Of a stretch of DNA of 35,420 nucleotides, positions 1,935 to 34,111 are shown piece after piece (within the stretch, counting starts at the first letter, position 1; each line of letters starts with the position of its first letter). The stretch is from a virus, in UHGV virus genome UHGV-0075595; one strand, 5' to 3'. A program made the position numbers and the translations under genes. Below the pieces are notes generated by a model. The model ran no database searches and was not told where the DNA came from. It saw only the letters and a program-made list of their open reading frames with translations.

Positions 1935-4397
1935 TCAATTCCCTGTTAATTGCAAAACTTGCTCTTCCAGCTTTTTAACCCTGCGTCTCATCATCGCAGA
2001 TTCCAGAATCAGAGCCTCTTCATAACGGATACCGTAACATTCACCAGCCTCGACGGCTTCGCGTACCAGAACCTTTGTCTGTATAAGTGGGTAAACTCCT
2101 GCAGAATGCTCTTCTTCCGTCACATCCCTGTATTCTGCCGGGGTCTCATTCCACTTGTCATAACAGATAAATGCCAGTCGTGACACATCTATGCCTTCAT
2201 TCTGAAATACACTGATAACATGCTGCGCAACTGCACCAAAGTGCCATCTTGCTCCGTCTTTACCTTTCACTTCGATCCTGTCAAGGTACTGGTATGAAAC
2301 CCATTCCACTCTTTCCCATGCGTCCAGTATTTTCTCATCAATAACCTCTGGAGCAGTCTTGAAACGCGCATCGGACAGCACCGTAAACGCTGACTGGGTA
2401 AATCCCCCCGACCATGCACGACCAGCCAACCCAAGAGAATAAGTATTCGTTGTCGATGGTGTCATGGCTGAATCAGAAAACTGTATATATTCTGAATTTC
2501 CAGTAGATATTCGAATATTTCCATTTATTAGCGACATAGTGCCTTTAGTATTATCACTATTGAATAATTTCAATTGCGAACTTATACCGCCTCCCACAGC
2601 CAGAGATACATCGCCTTCAGCAAGCATTCTGAATTTATCTGCAGAAACAAGCGTCTGGTTAGCAAGGTTAAAATATTTAACCCACCATTCAAAACGCCCT
2701 GACATAGTCCCAACGTACTGACCAAGCGCAGGGACGTGAACAACATTGCTATTTGTAGTGCCGTCTATACTGGAAATACCAGTCACCGCTGATGCAGAAC
2801 TCAGAATATTATTTCTGTCACCCGGATGTTTAATTTCAACAAAGTTCCTGATACACCCTTCCTCGAAGGTAACCACGCCGGAAGAACTATACATGGGGAA
2901 TATTGACGCATAATTACTGCGTGCAGCATCTAAGAAACGAATGGTTGTAGATGTCTGCAGATCTCCTGATTCATTTTTCCCATCACACCCAGTCATTAGA
3001 ATATTACTGGCAATATTATTATTTCCCTGAACGGTGACTCCGTGCGCCTGCTTTGCGTCCGATTCAGAGTAATCAACCAGCACATTCGAAATCAGGTTAC
3101 CAGTCCCCTTGCCAACAACTACTGCGGCGTATTTTGGGTTGTTAGCCATTACACTGCTAATGATATTATTCGTTGGGGCAGTTTCCGTCTCAGTTCCATT
3201 GTAAACAACGTGCTGACACTCTTCACCAATAACATTGCTGACAATGTTATATTTTGCTGCTGTTTTAAGTTCCACTGCACCAAACTGAGGATAATTTCTG
3301 GCTATCACACCATCAATTAGCGTATTTTGCGATGAATCAAAAAGCACACAACCTGCTTTTTTATTATTTGCGAACCCTAAATACTCTCCTCTTATATCTC
3401 TAACAATGTAACCTGACGGAATACCATTATTCGGATAAGCGATCAAGCTAAATCCTGTTCCTCGCGTATTTGTAAATCTGATATTTTTAACCGATACATC
3501 ATGGCCACCTGAAAATGACACCTGGTGTCCCTGCACACTATCATCTGATTTATTTCCCATAATTGTTAGCGTACTAAGCATGCCACCATCGGGCATGTTA
3601 AAAACCAGATGATTACCATCTCTGTCATACTGTTTTATCGTTCCCCCACCTGTTCCGTACAAGCCACAACGTGAAAGAGAAACTAAAGATGTATTGAATA
3701 CCCCTTCCGGAACAAAAACACTGCTAAACGAATGTAATGATTTTGTAAAAGCATCCTTGTTATCATTTAAGATTCCATTTTGAGCTCCAAAATCCTTAAT
3801 GCTGACACCATCACGCATCTTATCCTGGAACGTTCTGTATACCGCTCCAGAACCATACTGAATAAACCAACCAAAACCACCAATAACTCCGGCGATTGCA
3901 GCATCGACATAATTACGCATTGAGCGATTATTTACAGCGTCCTGCTCAAGTGATGGATCGGCAAGGTTAGATATTCTGTTTTGCTTTGCATCGTAATATT
4001 TTGCAAGCAAAGATGGTTTCATCAATGCACGTCTGAACCACCCAAAACATCGCTGGATCAGCATCGTCAGGTAGTCAAATGCATCCTCATGAACTTCGGG
4101 GAAAAATTTTCCCTGATTGCGAAGATCAGTCTCCTGCACCACATCAAGCACACGCTCTATCGTGATTCGCCAGCCAGCAGCAAGCGGCGACGGAAGAACC
4201 ACTGCACCGCCACTATAAGTTCCCGCCCCTGTTACCGTATAACCAGCATCCAGCACTAGTTTTGTAACGTTACCGTTAAGGTCAGACACCTGAACAACCA
4301 GGTCGGATTTTTTGAAAATACGGAAGGTATACGGAAATGATGTCGTAACGCCGTTACCTGTGTATTCGTTGTGGTCAACTTCGGTTGAGACCGTCAT
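1935..4397 (-). CDS. Tailspike / tail fiber with N-terminal particle-binding domain, central right-handed beta-helix (depolymerase-like) and C-terminal intramolecular chaperone (peptidase S74-like) domain
   Basis: 820 aa; N-terminal YTGNGVTTSFPYTF motif; central repetitive N/G/S/V-rich beta-helix-like region; C-terminal LSDARFKTAPEV...WHFGAVAQHV...ICYDKW motif; GGAGA RBS. Confidence 0.85.
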   Translation of the reverse strand: MTVSTEVDHNEYTGNGVTTSFPYTFRIFKKSDLVVQVSDLNGNVTKLVLDAGYTVTGAGTYSGGAVVLPSPLAAGWRITIERVLDVVQETDLRNQGKFFPEVHEDAFDYLTMLIQRCFGWFRRALMKPSLLAKYYDAKQNRISNLADPSLEQDAVNNRSMRNYVDAAIAGVIGGFGWFIQYGSGAVYRTFQDKMRDGVSIKDFGAQNGILNDNKDAFTKSLHSFSSVFVPEGVFNTSLVSLSRCGLYGTGGGTIKQYDRDGNHLVFNMPDGGMLSTLTIMGNKSDDSVQGHQVSFSGGHDVSVKNIRFTNTRGTGFSLIAYPNNGIPSGYIVRDIRGEYLGFANNKKAGCVLFDSSQNTLIDGVIARNYPQFGAVELKTAAKYNIVSNVIGEECQHVVYNGTETETAPTNNIISSVMANNPKYAAVVVGKGTGNLISNVLVDYSESDAKQAHGVTVQGNNNIASNILMTGCDGKNESGDLQTSTTIRFLDAARSNYASIFPMYSSSGVVTFEEGCIRNFVEIKHPGDRNNILSSASAVTGISSIDGTTNSNVVHVPALGQYVGTMSGRFEWWVKYFNLANQTLVSADKFRMLAEGDVSLAVGGGISSQLKLFNSDNTKGTMSLINGNIRISTGNSEYIQFSDSAMTPSTTNTYSLGLAGRAWSGGFTQSAFTVLSDARFKTAPEVIDEKILDAWERVEWVSYQYLDRIEVKGKDGARWHFGAVAQHVISVFQNEGIDVSRLAFICYDKWNETPAEYRDVTEEEHSAGVYPLIQTKVLVREAVEAGECYGIRYEEALILESAMMRRRVKKLEEQVLQLTGN

Positions 4398-4501
4398 GTT
4401 AAATCTCCAGATAGTCGCAGCACCCGTTGCGCCGCATATCTGGTTATTCTATTACCCAAAAAACCATATATGGATAGAAAGACTGTGAATATGAATAGAT
4501 A

Positions 4502-4516
4502 TTACCTTTCAGGTAA
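4502..4516. promoter_or_regulatory. Operator-like palindrome TTACCTTTCAGGTAA (member of ATTACC-N5-GGTAAT family)
   Basis: Perfect inverted half-sites; identical 17-mer TATTACCTTTCAGGTAA also at 23570..23586; lies between divergent tailspike and SOS-gene starts. Confidence 0.55.
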
Positions 4517-4555
4517 TTTGCAAAACGTGCTGGATAGCAAACAAATTATTTGCTA

Positions 4556-4571
4556 CTGTATAAATATACAG
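4556..4571 (+). promoter_or_regulatory. LexA (SOS) box CTGTATAAATATACAG overlapping a -10-like TATAAAT
   Basis: Exact CTGT-N8-ACAG with AT-rich centre, extended TACTGTATAAATATACAGTT; 23 bp upstream of ATG at 4594. Confidence 0.6.
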
Positions 4572-4593
4572 TTATTGCATGGAGAAGATTAAG

Positions 4594-4851
4594 ATGCAGC
4601 AGTATCACTATCCACTGGAAGAGGGATTTACCGAAAGGATTCACACGCCGGGAGGCGTCAGGTCACTGGTGGAGGGATCGCACTTGATGAAATTACTCCG
4701 GGATCTCGATAAGGATGGATTTAATGTCGATGGCCCACTTGCCGAACTGACTGCACTGATTAACTACGTCACCAGCTCACAGATGTCTATGCAGGATCTG
4801 CAAACACATCTCGACTATTGTGCCGAACAATTACGAAAACAAACCAGATAA
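4594..4851 (+). CDS. Small protein (85 aa) paralogous to the C-terminal domain of the downstream AntA-domain antirepressor; putative SOS-induced immunity modulator
   Basis: GGAGAAG RBS 6 nt upstream of ATG; shares a colinear motif series with the C-terminus of ORF 5169..5825 (IH-[ST]P-[GS]GV ... LM-LL ... DG-V-G ... ELT ... [DI]LQTH--Y); LexA box in its promoter. Confidence 0.55.
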   Translation: MQQYHYPLEEGFTERIHTPGGVRSLVEGSHLMKLLRDLDKDGFNVDGPLAELTALINYVTSSQMSMQDLQTHLDYCAEQLRKQTR

Positions 4852-4854
4852 GGT

Positions 4855-4897
4855 TTGAAATTACCAAATGGAGTGCTTATATTTACCTTTGCGGTAA
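4855..4897 (+). promoter_or_regulatory. Sigma70-like promoter (TTGAAA-17-TATATT) with operator TTACCTTTGCGGTAA overlapping -10/+1
   Basis: -35 at 4855..4860, -10 at 4878..4883, palindrome 4883..4897 with extended arms ATTTACC/GGTAAAT. Confidence 0.5.
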
Positions 4898-4924
4898 ATT
4901 TACATCGCACTCCTCTTGTGCCAT

Positions 4925-5010
4925 AGTAATCGGGCACTGGCAAAATCCAGTGCCGGGATTGGTCTCCCGGATTACTAAGTGGCGCATACCACGCCAGACG
5001 TGGTTTTTTT
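4925..5010 (+). ncRNA. Candidate structured leader / small RNA upstream of the antirepressor gene (nested hairpins ending in an intrinsic terminator)
   Basis: Hairpin GCACTGG-N6-CCAGTGC (4934..4953), CCGGGA-N6-TCCCGG (4953..4970), outer pairing AGTAATCGGG/CCCGGATTACT, then terminator; track ORF here starts with TTG and has no RBS. Confidence 0.3.
4988..5010 (+). terminator. Rho-independent terminator (ACCACG-ccaga-CGTGGT followed by T7)
   Basis: 6-bp GC-rich stem, 5-nt loop, T-run; sits between promoter at 4855 and antirepressor ATG at 5169. Confidence 0.55.
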
Positions 5011-5168
5011 ATGCGTATAGCACAGTCATGCCAGAATTATGGTGGGCTGAATGGGGGTCCGAAAGGACGCCGGTACCACTTAGGCCGGTAAGACCAACTC
5101 CGTTCAGTTCACCACCATCTGATTGGTCTCAGCGGTGGTGATGTAATTCGCTAAGTGGAGACGCCATC

Positions 5169-5825
5169 ATGAACGCTCAACTCATCCCCGTATTCAACGG
5201 CACTATATCTAACGAAACAGCCCTACTTTGTAATGCCCGCGATCTGCACGCTTTTTTAGGTGTTAAAAAGGTGTTTGCAGCATGGATTACAAATCGCATA
5301 TCAGAATACGAATTCATTGAAAATCAAGACTATATTTTGCTTTCCAATTTGGGAAAGCAAACATCTGGTAGAGGCGGCCACAACCGCAAAGAGTACCACC
5401 TCACCCTTGATACAGCCAAAGAGCTGGCGATGGTCGAGCGTAACGAAAAAGGTCGCCAGGTGCGACGCTACTTCATTGAATGCGAGAAACGTTTAAGACA
5501 ACAAGAAACAAAAGTGGAGAAGGTCTTGTCAGGCTTCATGCCCGCCATTATGGAGGCGATCAAGCTGGAAGACAAAAAAGAATACAGTGCCCCACTGAAG
5601 CCCGGCTACCGCAGCCTGATTCACTCGCCGTCTGGTGTTCTCGGCCTGACGGAGAACTCACTGCTGATGAATCTGCTGAACCAGTTACAGGACGACGGGC
5701 ACGACGTATCGGGCGCGGCGGCGGAGCTGACCACCATGTTCTGCTACATCGTTGGTGTGAGCAAATGCCTGCGTGATATCCAGACGCACGCGGAGTACAT
5801 CAACGACAAGGCAGGGTTCTTCTGA
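5169..5825 (+). CDS. Antirepressor, AntA-domain N-terminus plus C-terminal domain shared with ORF 4594..4851
   Basis: 218 aa; N-terminal LIPVFNG...[10 protein letters not shown]...[22 protein letters not shown]...[33 protein letters not shown] matches AntA-type antirepressor domain as recalled; GGAG RBS. Confidence 0.65.
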
Positions 5826-5869
5826 CGGGCGGCGGCACAGGGATGTGCCTTTAAATAATTCTGTACAGA

Positions 5870-5912
5870 TTGCAGACTGGGGGTGAATAGCGTACTATTA
5901 CCTCAAGGGTAA
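5870..5912 (+). promoter_or_regulatory. Sigma70-like promoter (TTGCAG-17-TACTAT) with operator TTACCTCAAGGGTAA overlapping -10/+1
   Basis: -35 5870..5875, -10 5893..5898, palindrome 5898..5912; same promoter-operator architecture as 4855..4897 and 29857..29899. Confidence 0.5.
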
Positions 5913-5971
5913 GAAAGCATTTTTAATCTTCCCTTCAAAACGCGTCCTGTAGCCAAACATGGGAGGACGAA

Positions 5972-6604
5972 ATGAGAACAAATACAACAAGAAAAGCGAT
6001 GCCATACATTATCCCAGAAGCAGATTTCGATAGAAAACTGAACATGTCTGAGAAGAACACTAGTCACACCGAAAGCTACTTAGCGAAAGGTGTGGTTGAT
6101 TTCGTTCTTCCGGGATTCACAACACCTTATGGTTATCGCCTTGTAAAATCTTGTAATGGCGATCATTACAGAATGATTACTACCAGCGATACTCCAGAAA
6201 CGGTGTATGCGGTTAAGTTAATCTTTCGGGAAGATATCGTCGAAGCCAAAAGAACATGTACGCAGATCATGGTATGGCGTACGCCTAATGTTATTCATGA
6301 CCGTGCTGTTCATGGTTTGCCTCAGATTTTTTTTCAGTTCTTCCTAGAGCAATATGCGATCGTTGTATCTGATGAGCAACAAACAATCGATGGGAGAAGA
6401 TTCTGGGAAAGAATGATTTCTTGGGCTATAAACACCCCAGGATATAATGTATACGTTTCAGATGGCTCTGAAGAAGATAGACCTCTTAGCTTCATGACAT
6501 CATGGGATGATTTCTATAGCCAGTGGGCTGATTTCTGTTGGGGCAGTGATAAAGATGTGCATACCCACAGACTACTGGTTATAAGCAAAGATAAACTGCA
6601 TTAA
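5972..6604 (+). CDS. Hypothetical protein (210 aa), cargo gene of unknown function in the immunity-like island
   Basis: Strong GGGAGG RBS 5 nt upstream; own operator-controlled promoter and own terminator; no family recognised. Confidence 0.6.
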   Translation: MRTNTTRKAMPYIIPEADFDRKLNMSEKNTSHTESYLAKGVVDFVLPGFTTPYGYRLVKSCNGDHYRMITTSDTPETVYAVKLIFREDIVEAKRTCTQIMVWRTPNVIHDRAVHGLPQIFFQFFLEQYAIVVSDEQQTIDGRRFWERMISWAINTPGYNVYVSDGSEEDRPLSFMTSWDDFYSQWADFCWGSDKDVHTHRLLVISKDKLH

Positions 6605-29026: not shown

Positions 29027-29062
29027 AGCTATTGCCTGATATTTATTTCAGATAATAAATAT

Positions 29063-29180: not shown

Positions 29181-29765
29181 ATGAAAAGTATCCAGGACGT
29201 CCGCAGGCAAAATCTCAACGACTTGATCGACCGTGAATTCAATGGTGTTCAGACGCGGATGGCAGAAAAACTTGGAACTCAGGCAAATCTGGTAAACCGC
29301 TGGGCTCTTGGCAAGAAGGTTATCGGCGACCAGGTTGCGCGAAAAATTGAAGCTGCCGCCAATAAACCCCGTAACTGGCTTGATATCGATCGCTCGCTTT
29401 CTCAGGAAGGTTTTCAGCCTGTCGGCCCAAGCGACATTGGTCAGCTGGCAGCTCACAACCTGGAACGCTGGATGAGTGAAAGCCGCGACCTTTCAACTCA
29501 GGGAAAACTTCACCGCGCATCCGGCGTCGCCCAGGTGACAATCAGTCGCCTGTTAAACAATGAGGTCAGCGTTTCCATTTCCACCCTGGAGAATGTTGCA
29601 TCCGCATTCGGGCGTCACGGATATGAACTACTGATTCACCCGCACGACCCTGCGACTATCAACTATGACCGCTCGCGCTACGCATTGTTACCCGAAACCG
29701 AGAAAGCAAAGATCGAAAGTTACATTGAATTTGTCATCAACCAGAACGAAAAAAACAAACAATAA
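29181..29765 (+). CDS. Repressor with tandem XRE-type HTH domains, no recognisable LexA-like S24 autocleavage domain
   Basis: 194 aa; two HTH-like segments (MAEKLGTQANLVNRWALGKK... and LHRASGVAQVTISRLLNNEV...); followed by strong terminator. Confidence 0.6.
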   Translation: MKSIQDVRRQNLNDLIDREFNGVQTRMAEKLGTQANLVNRWALGKKVIGDQVARKIEAAANKPRNWLDIDRSLSQEGFQPVGPSDIGQLAAHNLERWMSESRDLSTQGKLHRASGVAQVTISRLLNNEVSVSISTLENVASAFGRHGYELLIHPHDPATINYDRSRYALLPETEKAKIESYIEFVINQNEKNKQ

Positions 29766-29809: not shown

Positions 29810-29822
29810 ATTGCCTATACTA

Positions 29823-32812: not shown

Positions 32813-33455
32813 GAAATACACACTAATCTATGCAGATCCACCCTGGGTATACCGGGACAAAGCCGCAGATGGTAATCGCGGTGCCGGTTTTAAATATCCG
32901 GTTATGAGTGTGCTGGATATCTGCCGCCTTCCTGTGTGGGATTTGGCCGATGAAAACTGTCTGTTGGCCATGTGGTGGGTGCCAACACAACCACTCGAAG
33001 CACTAAAAGTTGTTGAAGCCTGGGGATTCCGTCTGATGACGATGAAGAGCTTCACGTGGATAAAATGTGGTAGTCGACAACCAGATAAACTGGTTATGGG
33101 TATGGGACACATGACTCGCGCCAATAGTGAAGATTGCCTGTTTGCGGTAAAGGGAAAACTACCTACGCGCATTAATGCAGGGATCGTTCAGTCATTTACC
33201 GCACCGCGGCCTGAGCATTCAAGAAAGCCAGATATCGTTCGTGAAAAACTTGTGCAATTATTAGGCGATGTTTCTCGCATTGAACTGTTCGCCCGCCAGA
33301 CGTCTCATGGCTTCGATGTTTGGGGTAATCAGTGCGAAGACCCGGCAGTGCAACTACACCCTGGATACGCGTTGGATATCGGCGGATTAACAAATGCATT
33401 CAGCAATGCTCCGCTGTCACCAACAGACAACCAGGGGCGGGAGCGTGCAGCATGA
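32805..33455 (+). CDS. DNA N6-adenine methyltransferase, MT-A70 family
   Basis: N-terminal YADPPW motif; 216 aa from ATG 32805. Confidence 0.7.
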
Positions 33456-34111
33456 ACCTATATCAACGCATCAATGGCGCTGACTGGTGCAATATCTTCG
33501 TCGTCGGCGATCTGCATGGGTGCTACACGCTGCTGATGAACGAACTCGACAAAGTTTCATTCGACCCGGCGCGCGATTTGCTTATTTCCGTTGGTGACCT
33601 TGTTGACCGCGGCGCTGAAAACGTCGAATGCCTGGATTTGATTACTATGCCGTGGTTCCGAGCTGTTCGTGGCAACCATGAGCAGATGATGCTGGATGCA
33701 CTGGTCAACGGCGGAAGTTTCGGACATTGGATGTCAAACGGCGGTGGATGGTGGCACCAACTTGATTCTGAGCAGGATGTGCAACTCAAATACCTTCTGC
33801 CAAAGGTTACCAACCTCCCGATGATTATCGAACTGGTTACCGGCAATAAGAAGGTCGTCATCTGCCACGCAGACTACCCGCACAACGAATACGCATTCGA
33901 TAAGCCAGTACCGGAAGAAATGGTGATATGGAATCGTGAGCGGGTTAGCGACGCGCAGGACGGTATTGTCTCGGAGATAACCGGTGCCGATTTGTTCATC
34001 TTCGGTCATACGCCAGCACATCACCCACTGGTGTATGCAAACCAAATGTACATCGACACCGGCGCAGTGTTCTGCGGAAATCTGACGCTTACCAAAGTCC
34101 AGGAAGGATAG
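33452..34111 (+). CDS. Serine/threonine protein phosphatase (lambda PPase-like metallophosphatase)
   Basis: Motifs GDLHGC, GDLVDRG, GNHE; start at ATG 33452 overlapping upstream stop. Confidence 0.75.

Follow-up and report, generated by a model that had tools for sequence, protein, structure and literature searches.

The DNA analysed here, a stretch of 35,420 nucleotides (nt) from the virus genome UHGV-0075595 (the window), belongs to a prophage of the epsilon15/phiV10 type (Uetakevirus) and carries two open reading frames (ORFs) of interest, one of 85 amino acids (aa; 4594..4851) and one of 218 aa (5169..5825). Both were found where a preliminary description, made from the letters alone, had placed them. 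We suggest that the two genes encode antirepressors whose homologous Ant-fold domains act on one non-cleavable repressor, Rep, that each is under a different signal and that the second is gated by an antisense RNA. On balance we consider this explanation probable. The window matches the phages phiv142-3, phiV10, TL-2011b and ZX5, and its region 4450-5830 is 100% identical to a prophage in the chromosome of Escherichia coli AR_0086. The locus is the anti-immunity (immI-like) region of the prophage. It is flanked by the tailspike gene (1935..4397, minus strand) on one side and the late genes on the other, which is the position of immI in P22. The exact arrangement of both genes is present in 79 of 5426 complete genomes. 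Full-length copies of the 218-aa protein occur in hundreds of contigs; it is a very common E. coli prophage protein.

The 85-aa protein can be assigned with the help of a crystal structure. With phmmer its sole strong match in the PDB is 5D50_E, the 'Anti-repressor protein' of the SPC32H Rep-Ant complex (E = 1.6e-47, residues 2-84), and it is about 89% identical to SPC32H Ant. A word-indexed search with the small protein retrieved more than 130 clusters of stand-alone homologs of 85-86 aa from Enterobacteriaceae. SPC32H Ant was crystallised in complex with Rep and is a tetramer (PMC9638917), and the C-terminal tetramerisation domain of Rep is the domain to which Ant binds (PMC9986798). Since the 85-aa protein is the ortholog of this crystallised protein, it is the characterised antirepressor itself and not a decoy. 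The preliminary description had called it a stand-alone paralog of the C-terminal domain of the 218-aa protein. The shared domain is borne out by our analysis, but the small protein is not a paralog or decoy of unknown kind. The inference has to be reversed: as the 85-aa protein is the known Ant, it is the AntA protein which carries an Ant module at its C-terminus.

The small gene also has the SOS-type control element that had been ascribed to it. A perfect LexA-type box, read from the sequence, precedes the gene (Table 1). The window has only one other CTGT-N8-ACAG site, and the box is kept in all six aligned phages including SPC32H. Between 4852 and 5168, that is upstream of the 218-aa gene, no CTGT-N8-ACAG site was found. 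Ant of the SPC32H type is under LexA control, and it is the cleavage of LexA that leads to its synthesis (Kim and Ryu 2013, cited in PMC7380047). In the public record of phage Tyrion (locus L006, 1467-1745) the small ant gene is annotated as a 54-aa fragment, gp21, which is an annotation error.

The two proteins share the same domain. BLASTP aligns residues 2-75 of the 85-aa protein without gaps to residues 137-210 of the 218-aa protein with 31 of 74 residues identical (42%, E = 6e-16), slightly more than the residues 15-80 and 145-210 first proposed. The Smith-Waterman score of 162 compares with 27.4 ± 4.5 (maximum 61) for 2000 shuffles, corresponding to a z value of about 30. Both proteins match PHROG 450 (1e-47 for the 85-aa and 5.7e-36 for the 218-aa protein) and PDB entry 5D50_E. 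The pairwise and profile alignments which the preliminary description had named as its check therefore reveal a significant similarity. A tblastn search of the window gave exactly two copies of the domain (4594-4848 and 5577-5798). One more, weak candidate at 33388-33483 (E = 0.013) has stop codons inside and was discarded as noise. In every phage examined the stand-alone and the fused copies form two clades which are about 40% identical. The split thus goes back to an ancient duplication or acquisition and not to a recent local event.

The 218-aa protein is a chimera in which a generic AntA N-domain is joined to a C-terminal domain of the Ant fold. Its residues 22-92 match the AntA domain PF08346 with 91.8 bits (cut-off 27), which places it in the AntA/AntB family, and PHROG 377 ('anti-repressor Ant') matches over the full length. 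The C-terminal 80 residues match 5D50_E (E = 8.2e-14). In the AlphaFold2 (AF2) model residues from about 140 to 218 have a predicted local distance difference test score (pLDDT) of 87-96. The top two PDB matches which Foldseek returns for the model are 5d50_E and 5d50_G (template modelling scores 0.85 and 0.84, root-mean-square deviations 1.0 and 1.7 Å, probability 1.00); as the domain is so short, the Foldseek E-value of the 5d50 match is only 1.2e-2. For the N-domain the model is of low confidence (pLDDT < 50 for residues 1-21 and 47-90), and we therefore draw no conclusion on its fold.

The presumed common target is encoded further downstream. The protein matches 5D50_A ('Repressor') with E = 4e-42 in a phmmer search. 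In Pfam it has helix-turn-helix domains only and an S24 peptidase domain was not found. Rep is a non-cleavable repressor which is unable to cleave itself.

Does the C-terminal domain of the 218-aa protein go together with this type of repressor? A profile of the domain was compared with 1.84 billion representative proteins and gave only 63 clusters, mostly stand-alone proteins of 80-95 aa. The fused forms surfaced only in this profile search; the word-indexed search with the small protein had returned only stand-alone relatives of 85-86 aa. Five N-domains were found fused to the Ant-like domain, namely AntA, Bro-N, Phage_pRha, ORF6N and P22_AR_N, the last one in gp42 of TL-2011b. In a collection of 50,697 phage records the AntA N-domain is present in 778, with Gram-positive as well as Gram-negative hosts (Streptococcus, Staphylococcus, Vibrio and others). 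The Ant-like C-terminal domain is present in only 32, and all 32 also encode a full-length Rep of the SPC32H type. Half of these records (16) have a fused and a small copy and the other 16 the small copy only; a fused copy was never found without the small one. Since the fused gene is always accompanied by the small copy and is frameshifted in phiV10, it is an accessory to the core Ant/Rep system.

The N-domains are swapped in front of the constant C-terminal domain. Among E. coli phages whose Rep proteins are 98.5-100% identical, near-identical C-terminal domains are joined to AntA (window), to Bro-N (ZX5 and TL-2011b) and to P22_AR_N (TL-2011b). A further relative, P0177, is 59% identical to AnrP of Gifsy-1 over the ORF6N N-domain and then continues with the Ant-like domain instead. 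Such a distribution together with the N-domain swaps is the pattern expected if the C-terminal domain is a repressor-specific adaptor and the N-domains are interchangeable. We infer that the C-terminal domain of the 218-aa protein binds Rep.

The shared domain could also be just a module for oligomerisation (tetramerisation), with activity and target specificity residing in the N-domain and with a target that is maybe not Rep at all. SPC32H Ant is a tetramer (PMC9638917), many annotated antirepressors of unrelated phages have these N-domains, and the paralog clades are only about 40% identical. But a generic module would not be expected to be confined to one type of repressor, as it is in 32 of 32 records. 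Moreover, five unrelated N-domains have been exchanged while the RNA cassette before them and the C-terminal domain after them remained constant, and Gifsy-1 has the same cassette and N-domain with a different C-terminal domain. We therefore hold a purely oligomerising role for quite improbable.

The RNA cassette is located in the gap of 317 nt between the two genes, which the preliminary description had overlooked. The gap holds an immI cassette of the P1/P7 type (Rfam CL00128; 4921-5168). A promoter-like element lies at its 5′ end and could serve the whole transcript. Its -10 block TGTGCCATAGT does not vary among four aligned phages and served as the anchor for all eight loci; it ends 7 nt before position 4934, where the match to the Rfam isrK model begins. 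Another promoter-like site at 4855-4883 (score 10/12) is not kept in TL-2011b or in the Klebsiella phage ST512-KPC3phi13.3 and we did not rely on it. The IsrK-like RNA ends in an intrinsic terminator and is followed by a C4-type antisense RNA of full model length. The Rfam family RF03163 (c4-a1b1) scores 39.9 bits, which is under its gathering score of 46.7. C4 and isrK matches above the gathering thresholds are also present in phiv142-3, phiV10, TL-2011b, Tyrion, the Klebsiella phage and Gifsy-1.

Short segments of C4, a' and b', have exact complements on both sides: a1 and b1 lie inside the IsrK-like RNA and a2 and b2 downstream of C4. The 218-aa gene starts with ATG at 5169, and its Shine-Dalgarno sequence GGAG (5157-5160) overlaps with the b2 site. 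We compared these sites in eight loci (the window, phiv142-3, phiV10, TL-2011b, Tyrion, the Klebsiella phage and two metagenomic loci), where the cassette precedes the fused gene whatever the N-domain is. Three variants of the a site (TTGGTCT, TTGGCGT and TTTGCAC) and three of the b site (CTAAGTGG, CTAAAAGG and CTACAAAGG) exist. The window has TTGGTCT with CTAAGTGG, whereas phiV10 and TL-2011b have TTGGCGT with CTAAAAGG. In each of the eight loci a', a1 and a2 have changed in concert, as have b' and b2, and b1 follows them in seven; a complementary b1 was not found in Tyrion. The covariation of the sites across the eight loci is strong comparative evidence that C4 pairs functionally with the a and b sites, and it shows that the specificity of C4 has diversified among related phages. 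C4 specificity also differs between P1 and P7.

An ORF of 37 codons at 5028-5141, overlapping C4, might be mistaken for a leader gene of the orf45/icd kind. Its frame and start differ in phiV10 and it was therefore not treated as a gene. In the window b2 lies directly on the ribosome site of the antirepressor gene and a leader ORF coupled to this gene was not found. We also observed that the closing stem of C4 has in its 3′ arm (5109-5116) the complement of GGTGGTGA (5134-5141), with a2 in the loop between them. This pairing is kept in all eight loci and suggests that the unprocessed transcript may have alternative folds like structures A and B of the Gifsy-1 isrK mRNA.

Table 1. Features of the anti-immunity region and the presumed target gene (positions in the window; +, plus strand;., no strand assigned)
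Feature	Position	Strand	Basis or remark
Operator-like palindrome ATTACCTTTCAGGTAAT	4501..4517	.	upstream of small ant; half-sites kept in 6/6 aligned phages including SPC32H
LexA (SOS) box CTGTATAAATATACAG	4556-4571	.	perfect CTGT-N8-ACAG, 22 nt before the start codon (ATG) of small ant
ant, small (85 aa) SPC32H-type antirepressor	4594..4851	+	PDB 5D50_E, PHROG 450
Perfect operator-like palindrome TTTACCTTTGCGGTAAA	4882..4898	.	0 mismatches; abuts -35 of the IsrK/C4 promoter-like element
Promoter-like element TTTACA, 17 nt, CATAGT, with TG	4899..4927	+	consensus scan; putative promoter of the IsrK-like/C4/ant transcript
IsrK-like RNA	4934..5010	+	Rfam RF01394, 67.7 bits (gathering 50)
a1 TTGGTCT	4959-4965	+	inside IsrK-like RNA, exact 7-nt complement to C4
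b1 CTAAGTGG	4975-4982	+	inside IsrK-like RNA, exact 8-nt complement to C4
Intrinsic terminator ending IsrK-like RNA	4988-5010	+	terminator scan
C4-type antisense RNA	5035..5119	+	Rfam RF01695, 61.2 bits (gathering 45), full model length
b' of C4	5076-5083	+	within C4 RNA
a' of C4	5091-5097	+	within C4 RNA
a2 TTGGTCT	5123-5129	+	downstream of C4, exact complement to a'
b2 CTAAGTGG	5151-5158	+	exact complement to b'; overlaps Shine-Dalgarno of the 218-aa gene
Chimeric antirepressor: AntA N-domain, helical linker, Ant-fold C-terminal domain (predicted)	5169..5825	+	Pfam, phmmer, AF2 and Foldseek
AntA N-domain of the 218-aa protein	residues 22-92, nt 5232-5444	+	PF08346
Ant-fold C-terminal domain of the 218-aa protein (predicted)	residues 137-210, nt 5577-5798	+	5D50_E
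rep, SPC32H-type repressor, presumed common target	29181..29765	+	5D50_A

The preliminary description had contrasted the two genes as LexA-controlled and phage-operator-controlled. That their regulatory elements differ is confirmed, but the operator is not what distinguishes them. The palindrome TTACC-N5-GGTAA occurs 12 times in the window where 0.88 sites are expected. A scan with TTTACC-N5-GGTAAA and up to 2 mismatches gave 17-nt sites which include those at 4501, 4882, 5897, 23571, 26717, 26779, 29062, 29110, 29822 and 29884. They cluster around rep and before several early or accessory genes; rep is flanked by the sites at 29062 and 29110 in the upstream intergenic region and by those at 29822 and 29884 downstream. 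We take these palindromes for putative Rep operators, and the set is probably the Rep regulon of the phage. Since such a site is present before both genes, it does not separate them; the distinguishing elements would be the LexA box for the first gene and the C4/IsrK cassette for the second.

The second site, a perfect palindrome, abuts the -35 element of the cassette. Its half-sites are invariant and only the 5-nt spacer varies between the window, phiV10, TL-2011b and the Klebsiella phage, and the palindrome is also present in the two metagenomic loci L008 and L010. Conceivably Rep represses the IsrK/C4/ant promoter via this site. Ant made in the SOS response would then inactivate Rep and derepress the second antirepressor, so that induction becomes irreversible and the second gene amplifies the SOS signal instead of being an independent input. 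A lock-in of this kind, which corresponds to the feed-forward circuit of the preliminary description and for which the conserved palindrome speaks, has a parallel in P1, where ant is likewise under the control of C1 and C4 (PMC8201110). In addition, a scan of the window found no terminator on the plus strand between the small gene and the cassette, and some read-in from the ant promoter might occur. On the other side, the center of the palindrome is about 44 nt upstream of the presumed transcription start, where bound Rep could have either a repressing or an activating effect. Even after derepression, translation would still be blocked by C4, and a palindrome of this kind also precedes the small gene, so that the two genes are alike in this respect. 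In the metagenomic contigs L008 and L010, which have ORF6N and pRha fusions, the fused gene and small ant are in convergent orientation, whereas the two genes of the window point in the same direction. Read-through is therefore ruled out as a general mechanism and co-transcription is not a general part of it. In both contigs the small ant gene has a variant SOS-box-like sequence, ATGT-N8-ACAG. We see the lock-in as a minor possibility which could be partly compatible with the explanation favoured here.

A further alternative, already raised in the preliminary description, is that one paralog antagonises the other as a decoy or modulator, either through mixed Ant tetramers or by occupying Rep without effect, and thereby dampens or times the SOS induction. 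With homologous folds and a tetrameric small Ant (PMC9638917) mixed oligomers are conceivable, and each of the 16 records that have a fused copy contains the domain at least twice. But the ortholog of the small protein is a proven antirepressor (5D50), and overexpression of the Bro-N fusion of ZX5 (ORF4) moved this phage away from lysogeny as an antirepressor would do: the lysogens dropped about 1000-fold, from 1e9 to 1e6 PFU/mL (plaque-forming units; PMC9782041). The C-terminal domain of ZX5 ORF4 is 93% identical to that of the window and the Rep proteins are identical. For these reasons a decoy is in our view very improbable.

We suggest that the two antirepressors act in the following way. 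DNA damage would remove LexA and the 85-aa Ant would be made. As in the SPC32H ortholog, Ant would bind to the C-terminal domain of Rep and break up the DNA-binding Rep tetramer. The 218-aa protein would combine the 5′ cassette and an N-domain of the type of P1/P7 Ant and Gifsy-1 AnrP with the Ant-paralog C-terminal domain, which would provide the specificity for Rep. C4, processed from the same transcript, could pair with a2 and b2 over the ribosome-binding site and block the translation of the 218-aa protein. The IsrK-like RNA with its decoy copies a1 and b1 would relieve this block, as in Gifsy-1. Thus, the block on the fused protein would be lifted if C4 were missing, did not match or were titrated by the IsrK-like RNA, for example upon superinfection of a lysogen with the same Rep by a phage of different C4 specificity, or under the non-SOS conditions described for IsrK. 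As C4 specificity differs among related phages with identical Rep, the second antirepressor is most plausibly the input for anti-immunity and superinfection or for induction without SOS, and Ant is the SOS input. The time at which each protein acts is something we infer from this arrangement.

Several points weigh against this explanation. The small Ant proteins of the window and of SPC32H are 89% identical although the Rep proteins of the two phages are only about 42% identical. The sequence of Ant therefore does not just follow that of Rep, and the co-occurrence of the domain with Rep becomes a weaker argument for specificity. Either Ant binds to a conserved part of Rep, or the two genes have been exchanged independently between phages. 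Between the two paralog clades the identity is only about 40%, and concerted evolution is not apparent; their partners or surfaces could thus have diverged. The fused gene is dispensable, since phiV10 has a frameshifted copy and SPC32H, epsilon15 and PAS61 have none. Finally, the ZX5 experiment employed an overexpressed glutathione S-transferase (GST) fusion with the lysogen count, not binding, as readout (PMC9782041). The ZX5 paper mentions neither the small Ant nor LexA.

A bolder idea, which we think rather unlikely, is that the Ant fold serves as a portable 'Rep-binding plug' on differently gated proteins. The gated forms would be the LexA-controlled stand-alone Ant, the AntA, Bro-N, pRha and ORF6N fusions behind C4/IsrK and the P22-type fusions behind Arc and sar, with up to three Ant-domain genes in one genome (TL-2011b). 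As Ant works as a tetramer the paralogs may co-assemble, and a single repressor would integrate SOS, superinfection (through the C4 specificity) and other signals via mixed oligomers. The diversification of C4 would then be an arms race among phages with identical Rep.

Some further observations were made at related loci. In TL-2011b (L003, 1667-6127) the three Ant-domain genes are small ant, a C4-controlled Bro-N fusion and a P22_AR_N fusion which adjoins an Arc-like repressor and a sar RNA (RF00262, 44.8 bits); both fused copies have identical C-terminal domains. HEMP4 (L007, 5483-6270) has an extra AntA-Ant-domain gene beside the integrase. Upstream of it we found a match to the Rfam family sRNA-Xcc1 (RF02221, 62.9 bits) in place of isrK/C4, which may be a fourth kind of regulatory context. 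In phiV10 (L002, 3840-4519) the Bro-N protein p23 ('anti-immunity protein') is truncated by a frameshift inside the Ant-like domain and the annotated 29-aa p22 is the leftover C-terminal piece of p23. Because of this frameshift the fused antirepressor is a pseudogene in the type phage. In the Klebsiella phage (L004, 3060-3755) the fused gene is annotated from an internal start at 3300, which is an annotation error; the ORF truly begins at 3060, right after b2, and includes the Bro-N domain. In the window, an ORF of 210 aa (5972..6604; PHROG 1349, unknown function, no Pfam domain) lies 3′ to the fused gene and is preceded by its own palindrome of the operator type (5897-5913). Possibly it is a further accessory gene under Rep control in the same variable slot. 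The corresponding slot of TL-2011b holds a YafO toxin and an arc-ant module of the P22 type.

How does the locus compare with known systems? The Salmonella phage SPC32H, also a Uetakevirus (5D50/5D4Z; Kim and Ryu 2013; Kim et al. 2016), has the 89% identical small ant in the same slot, with the tailspike on one side and the late genes on the other. It shares the LexA box and the upstream palindrome and has a Rep homolog, and the C-terminal domain of the 218-aa protein is predicted to have the fold of its Ant. In contrast to the window, SPC32H has the small gene only, without C4 cassette or fused paralog, and its Rep is 42% identical.

With immI of P1/P7 (c4, icd, ant1/2; Citron and Schuster 1990) the locus has in common a C4 of the same Rfam family, a1/b1 upstream and a2/b2 downstream with b2 on the ribosome site, specificity variants, a putative repressor-operator layer and an antirepressor of the AntA class downstream, the likeness to P1 Ant being at the level of the class. 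P1 Ant is controlled by C1 and the C4 RNA (PMC8201110). Different from P1/P7, there is no conserved icd-like leader gene in our locus, C4 would target the ribosome site of the antirepressor gene directly, and the C-terminal domain is a paralog of SPC32H Ant.

The isrK-orf45-anrP region of Gifsy-1 (Hershko-Shalev et al. 2016, PMC4825925) likewise has isrK and C4-like (STnc1160) RNAs upstream of an antirepressor. In the window, too, the IsrK-like RNA scores above the Rfam threshold and ends in a terminator before the antirepressor gene. The short IsrK activates the translation of anrP, and expression of AnrP induces the Gifsy-1 prophage (PMC4825925). Relatives of the 218-aa protein such as P0177 share the ORF6N N-domain of AnrP, whereas the C-terminal domain of AnrP is unrelated to Ant and orf45 is not conserved in the window. 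The 218-aa protein itself is not homologous to AnrP at the level of BLASTP (E = 0.18 against STM2616). We also considered whether the paralogy extends to Gifsy-1. STM2621.1n, the ORF after the dinI homolog in the LT2 record, which from PMC3121763 we take to be GfoA, lacks similarity to AnrP (E = 7.7), and at the sensitivity of BLASTP the paralogy does not reach Gifsy-1.

GfoA, GftA and FsoA of the Gifsy and Fels prophages (Lemire et al. 2011, PMC3121763) are small antirepressors of non-cleavable repressors, too. They are homologous and under different controls, GfoA and GftA by LexA and FsoA by the phage repressor (PMC3121763). Unlike the genes studied here they belong to separate prophages and have no N-domain fusion, and they are not known to be related to Ant in sequence. 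The immI region of P22 (mnt-arc-sar-ant) occupies the same slot by the tailspike. The P22_AR_N fusion of TL-2011b resembles it with its Arc-like repressor and sar RNA and has an Ant-like C-terminal domain, while the window itself has no arc, mnt or sar.

Small antirepressors under LexA control, antirepressors controlled by C4/IsrK, the shuffling of Bro-N, AntA and KilA-N domains and homologous antirepressors under different controls (GftA versus FsoA, PMC3121763) are already known. As components and logic have precedents, our results refine known biology and do not describe a new kind of system, and they should not surprise the specialist. In the searchable literature we did not find it recognised that the C-terminal domain of the common E. 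coli AntA/Bro-N antirepressor of phiV10-like prophages is a paralog of SPC32H Ant, nor that one phage carries two or three differently gated copies of this domain.

In summary, a likely function can be assigned to a protein which is annotated only as 'AntA/AntB antirepressor', and we propose which half of it recognises the repressor. The Ant/Rep pair of SPC32H, c4-ant of P1/P7 and IsrK-AnrP of Gifsy-1 can be joined in one modular scheme of an RNA cassette, an interchangeable N-domain and a C-terminal domain which would be repressor-specific. If this is true, these prophages, including the phiV10-like phages of E. coli O157 and of other pathogenic E. coli, would have a route of induction that is independent of SOS, and homoimmune phages could overcome each other's repression according to their C4 specificity.

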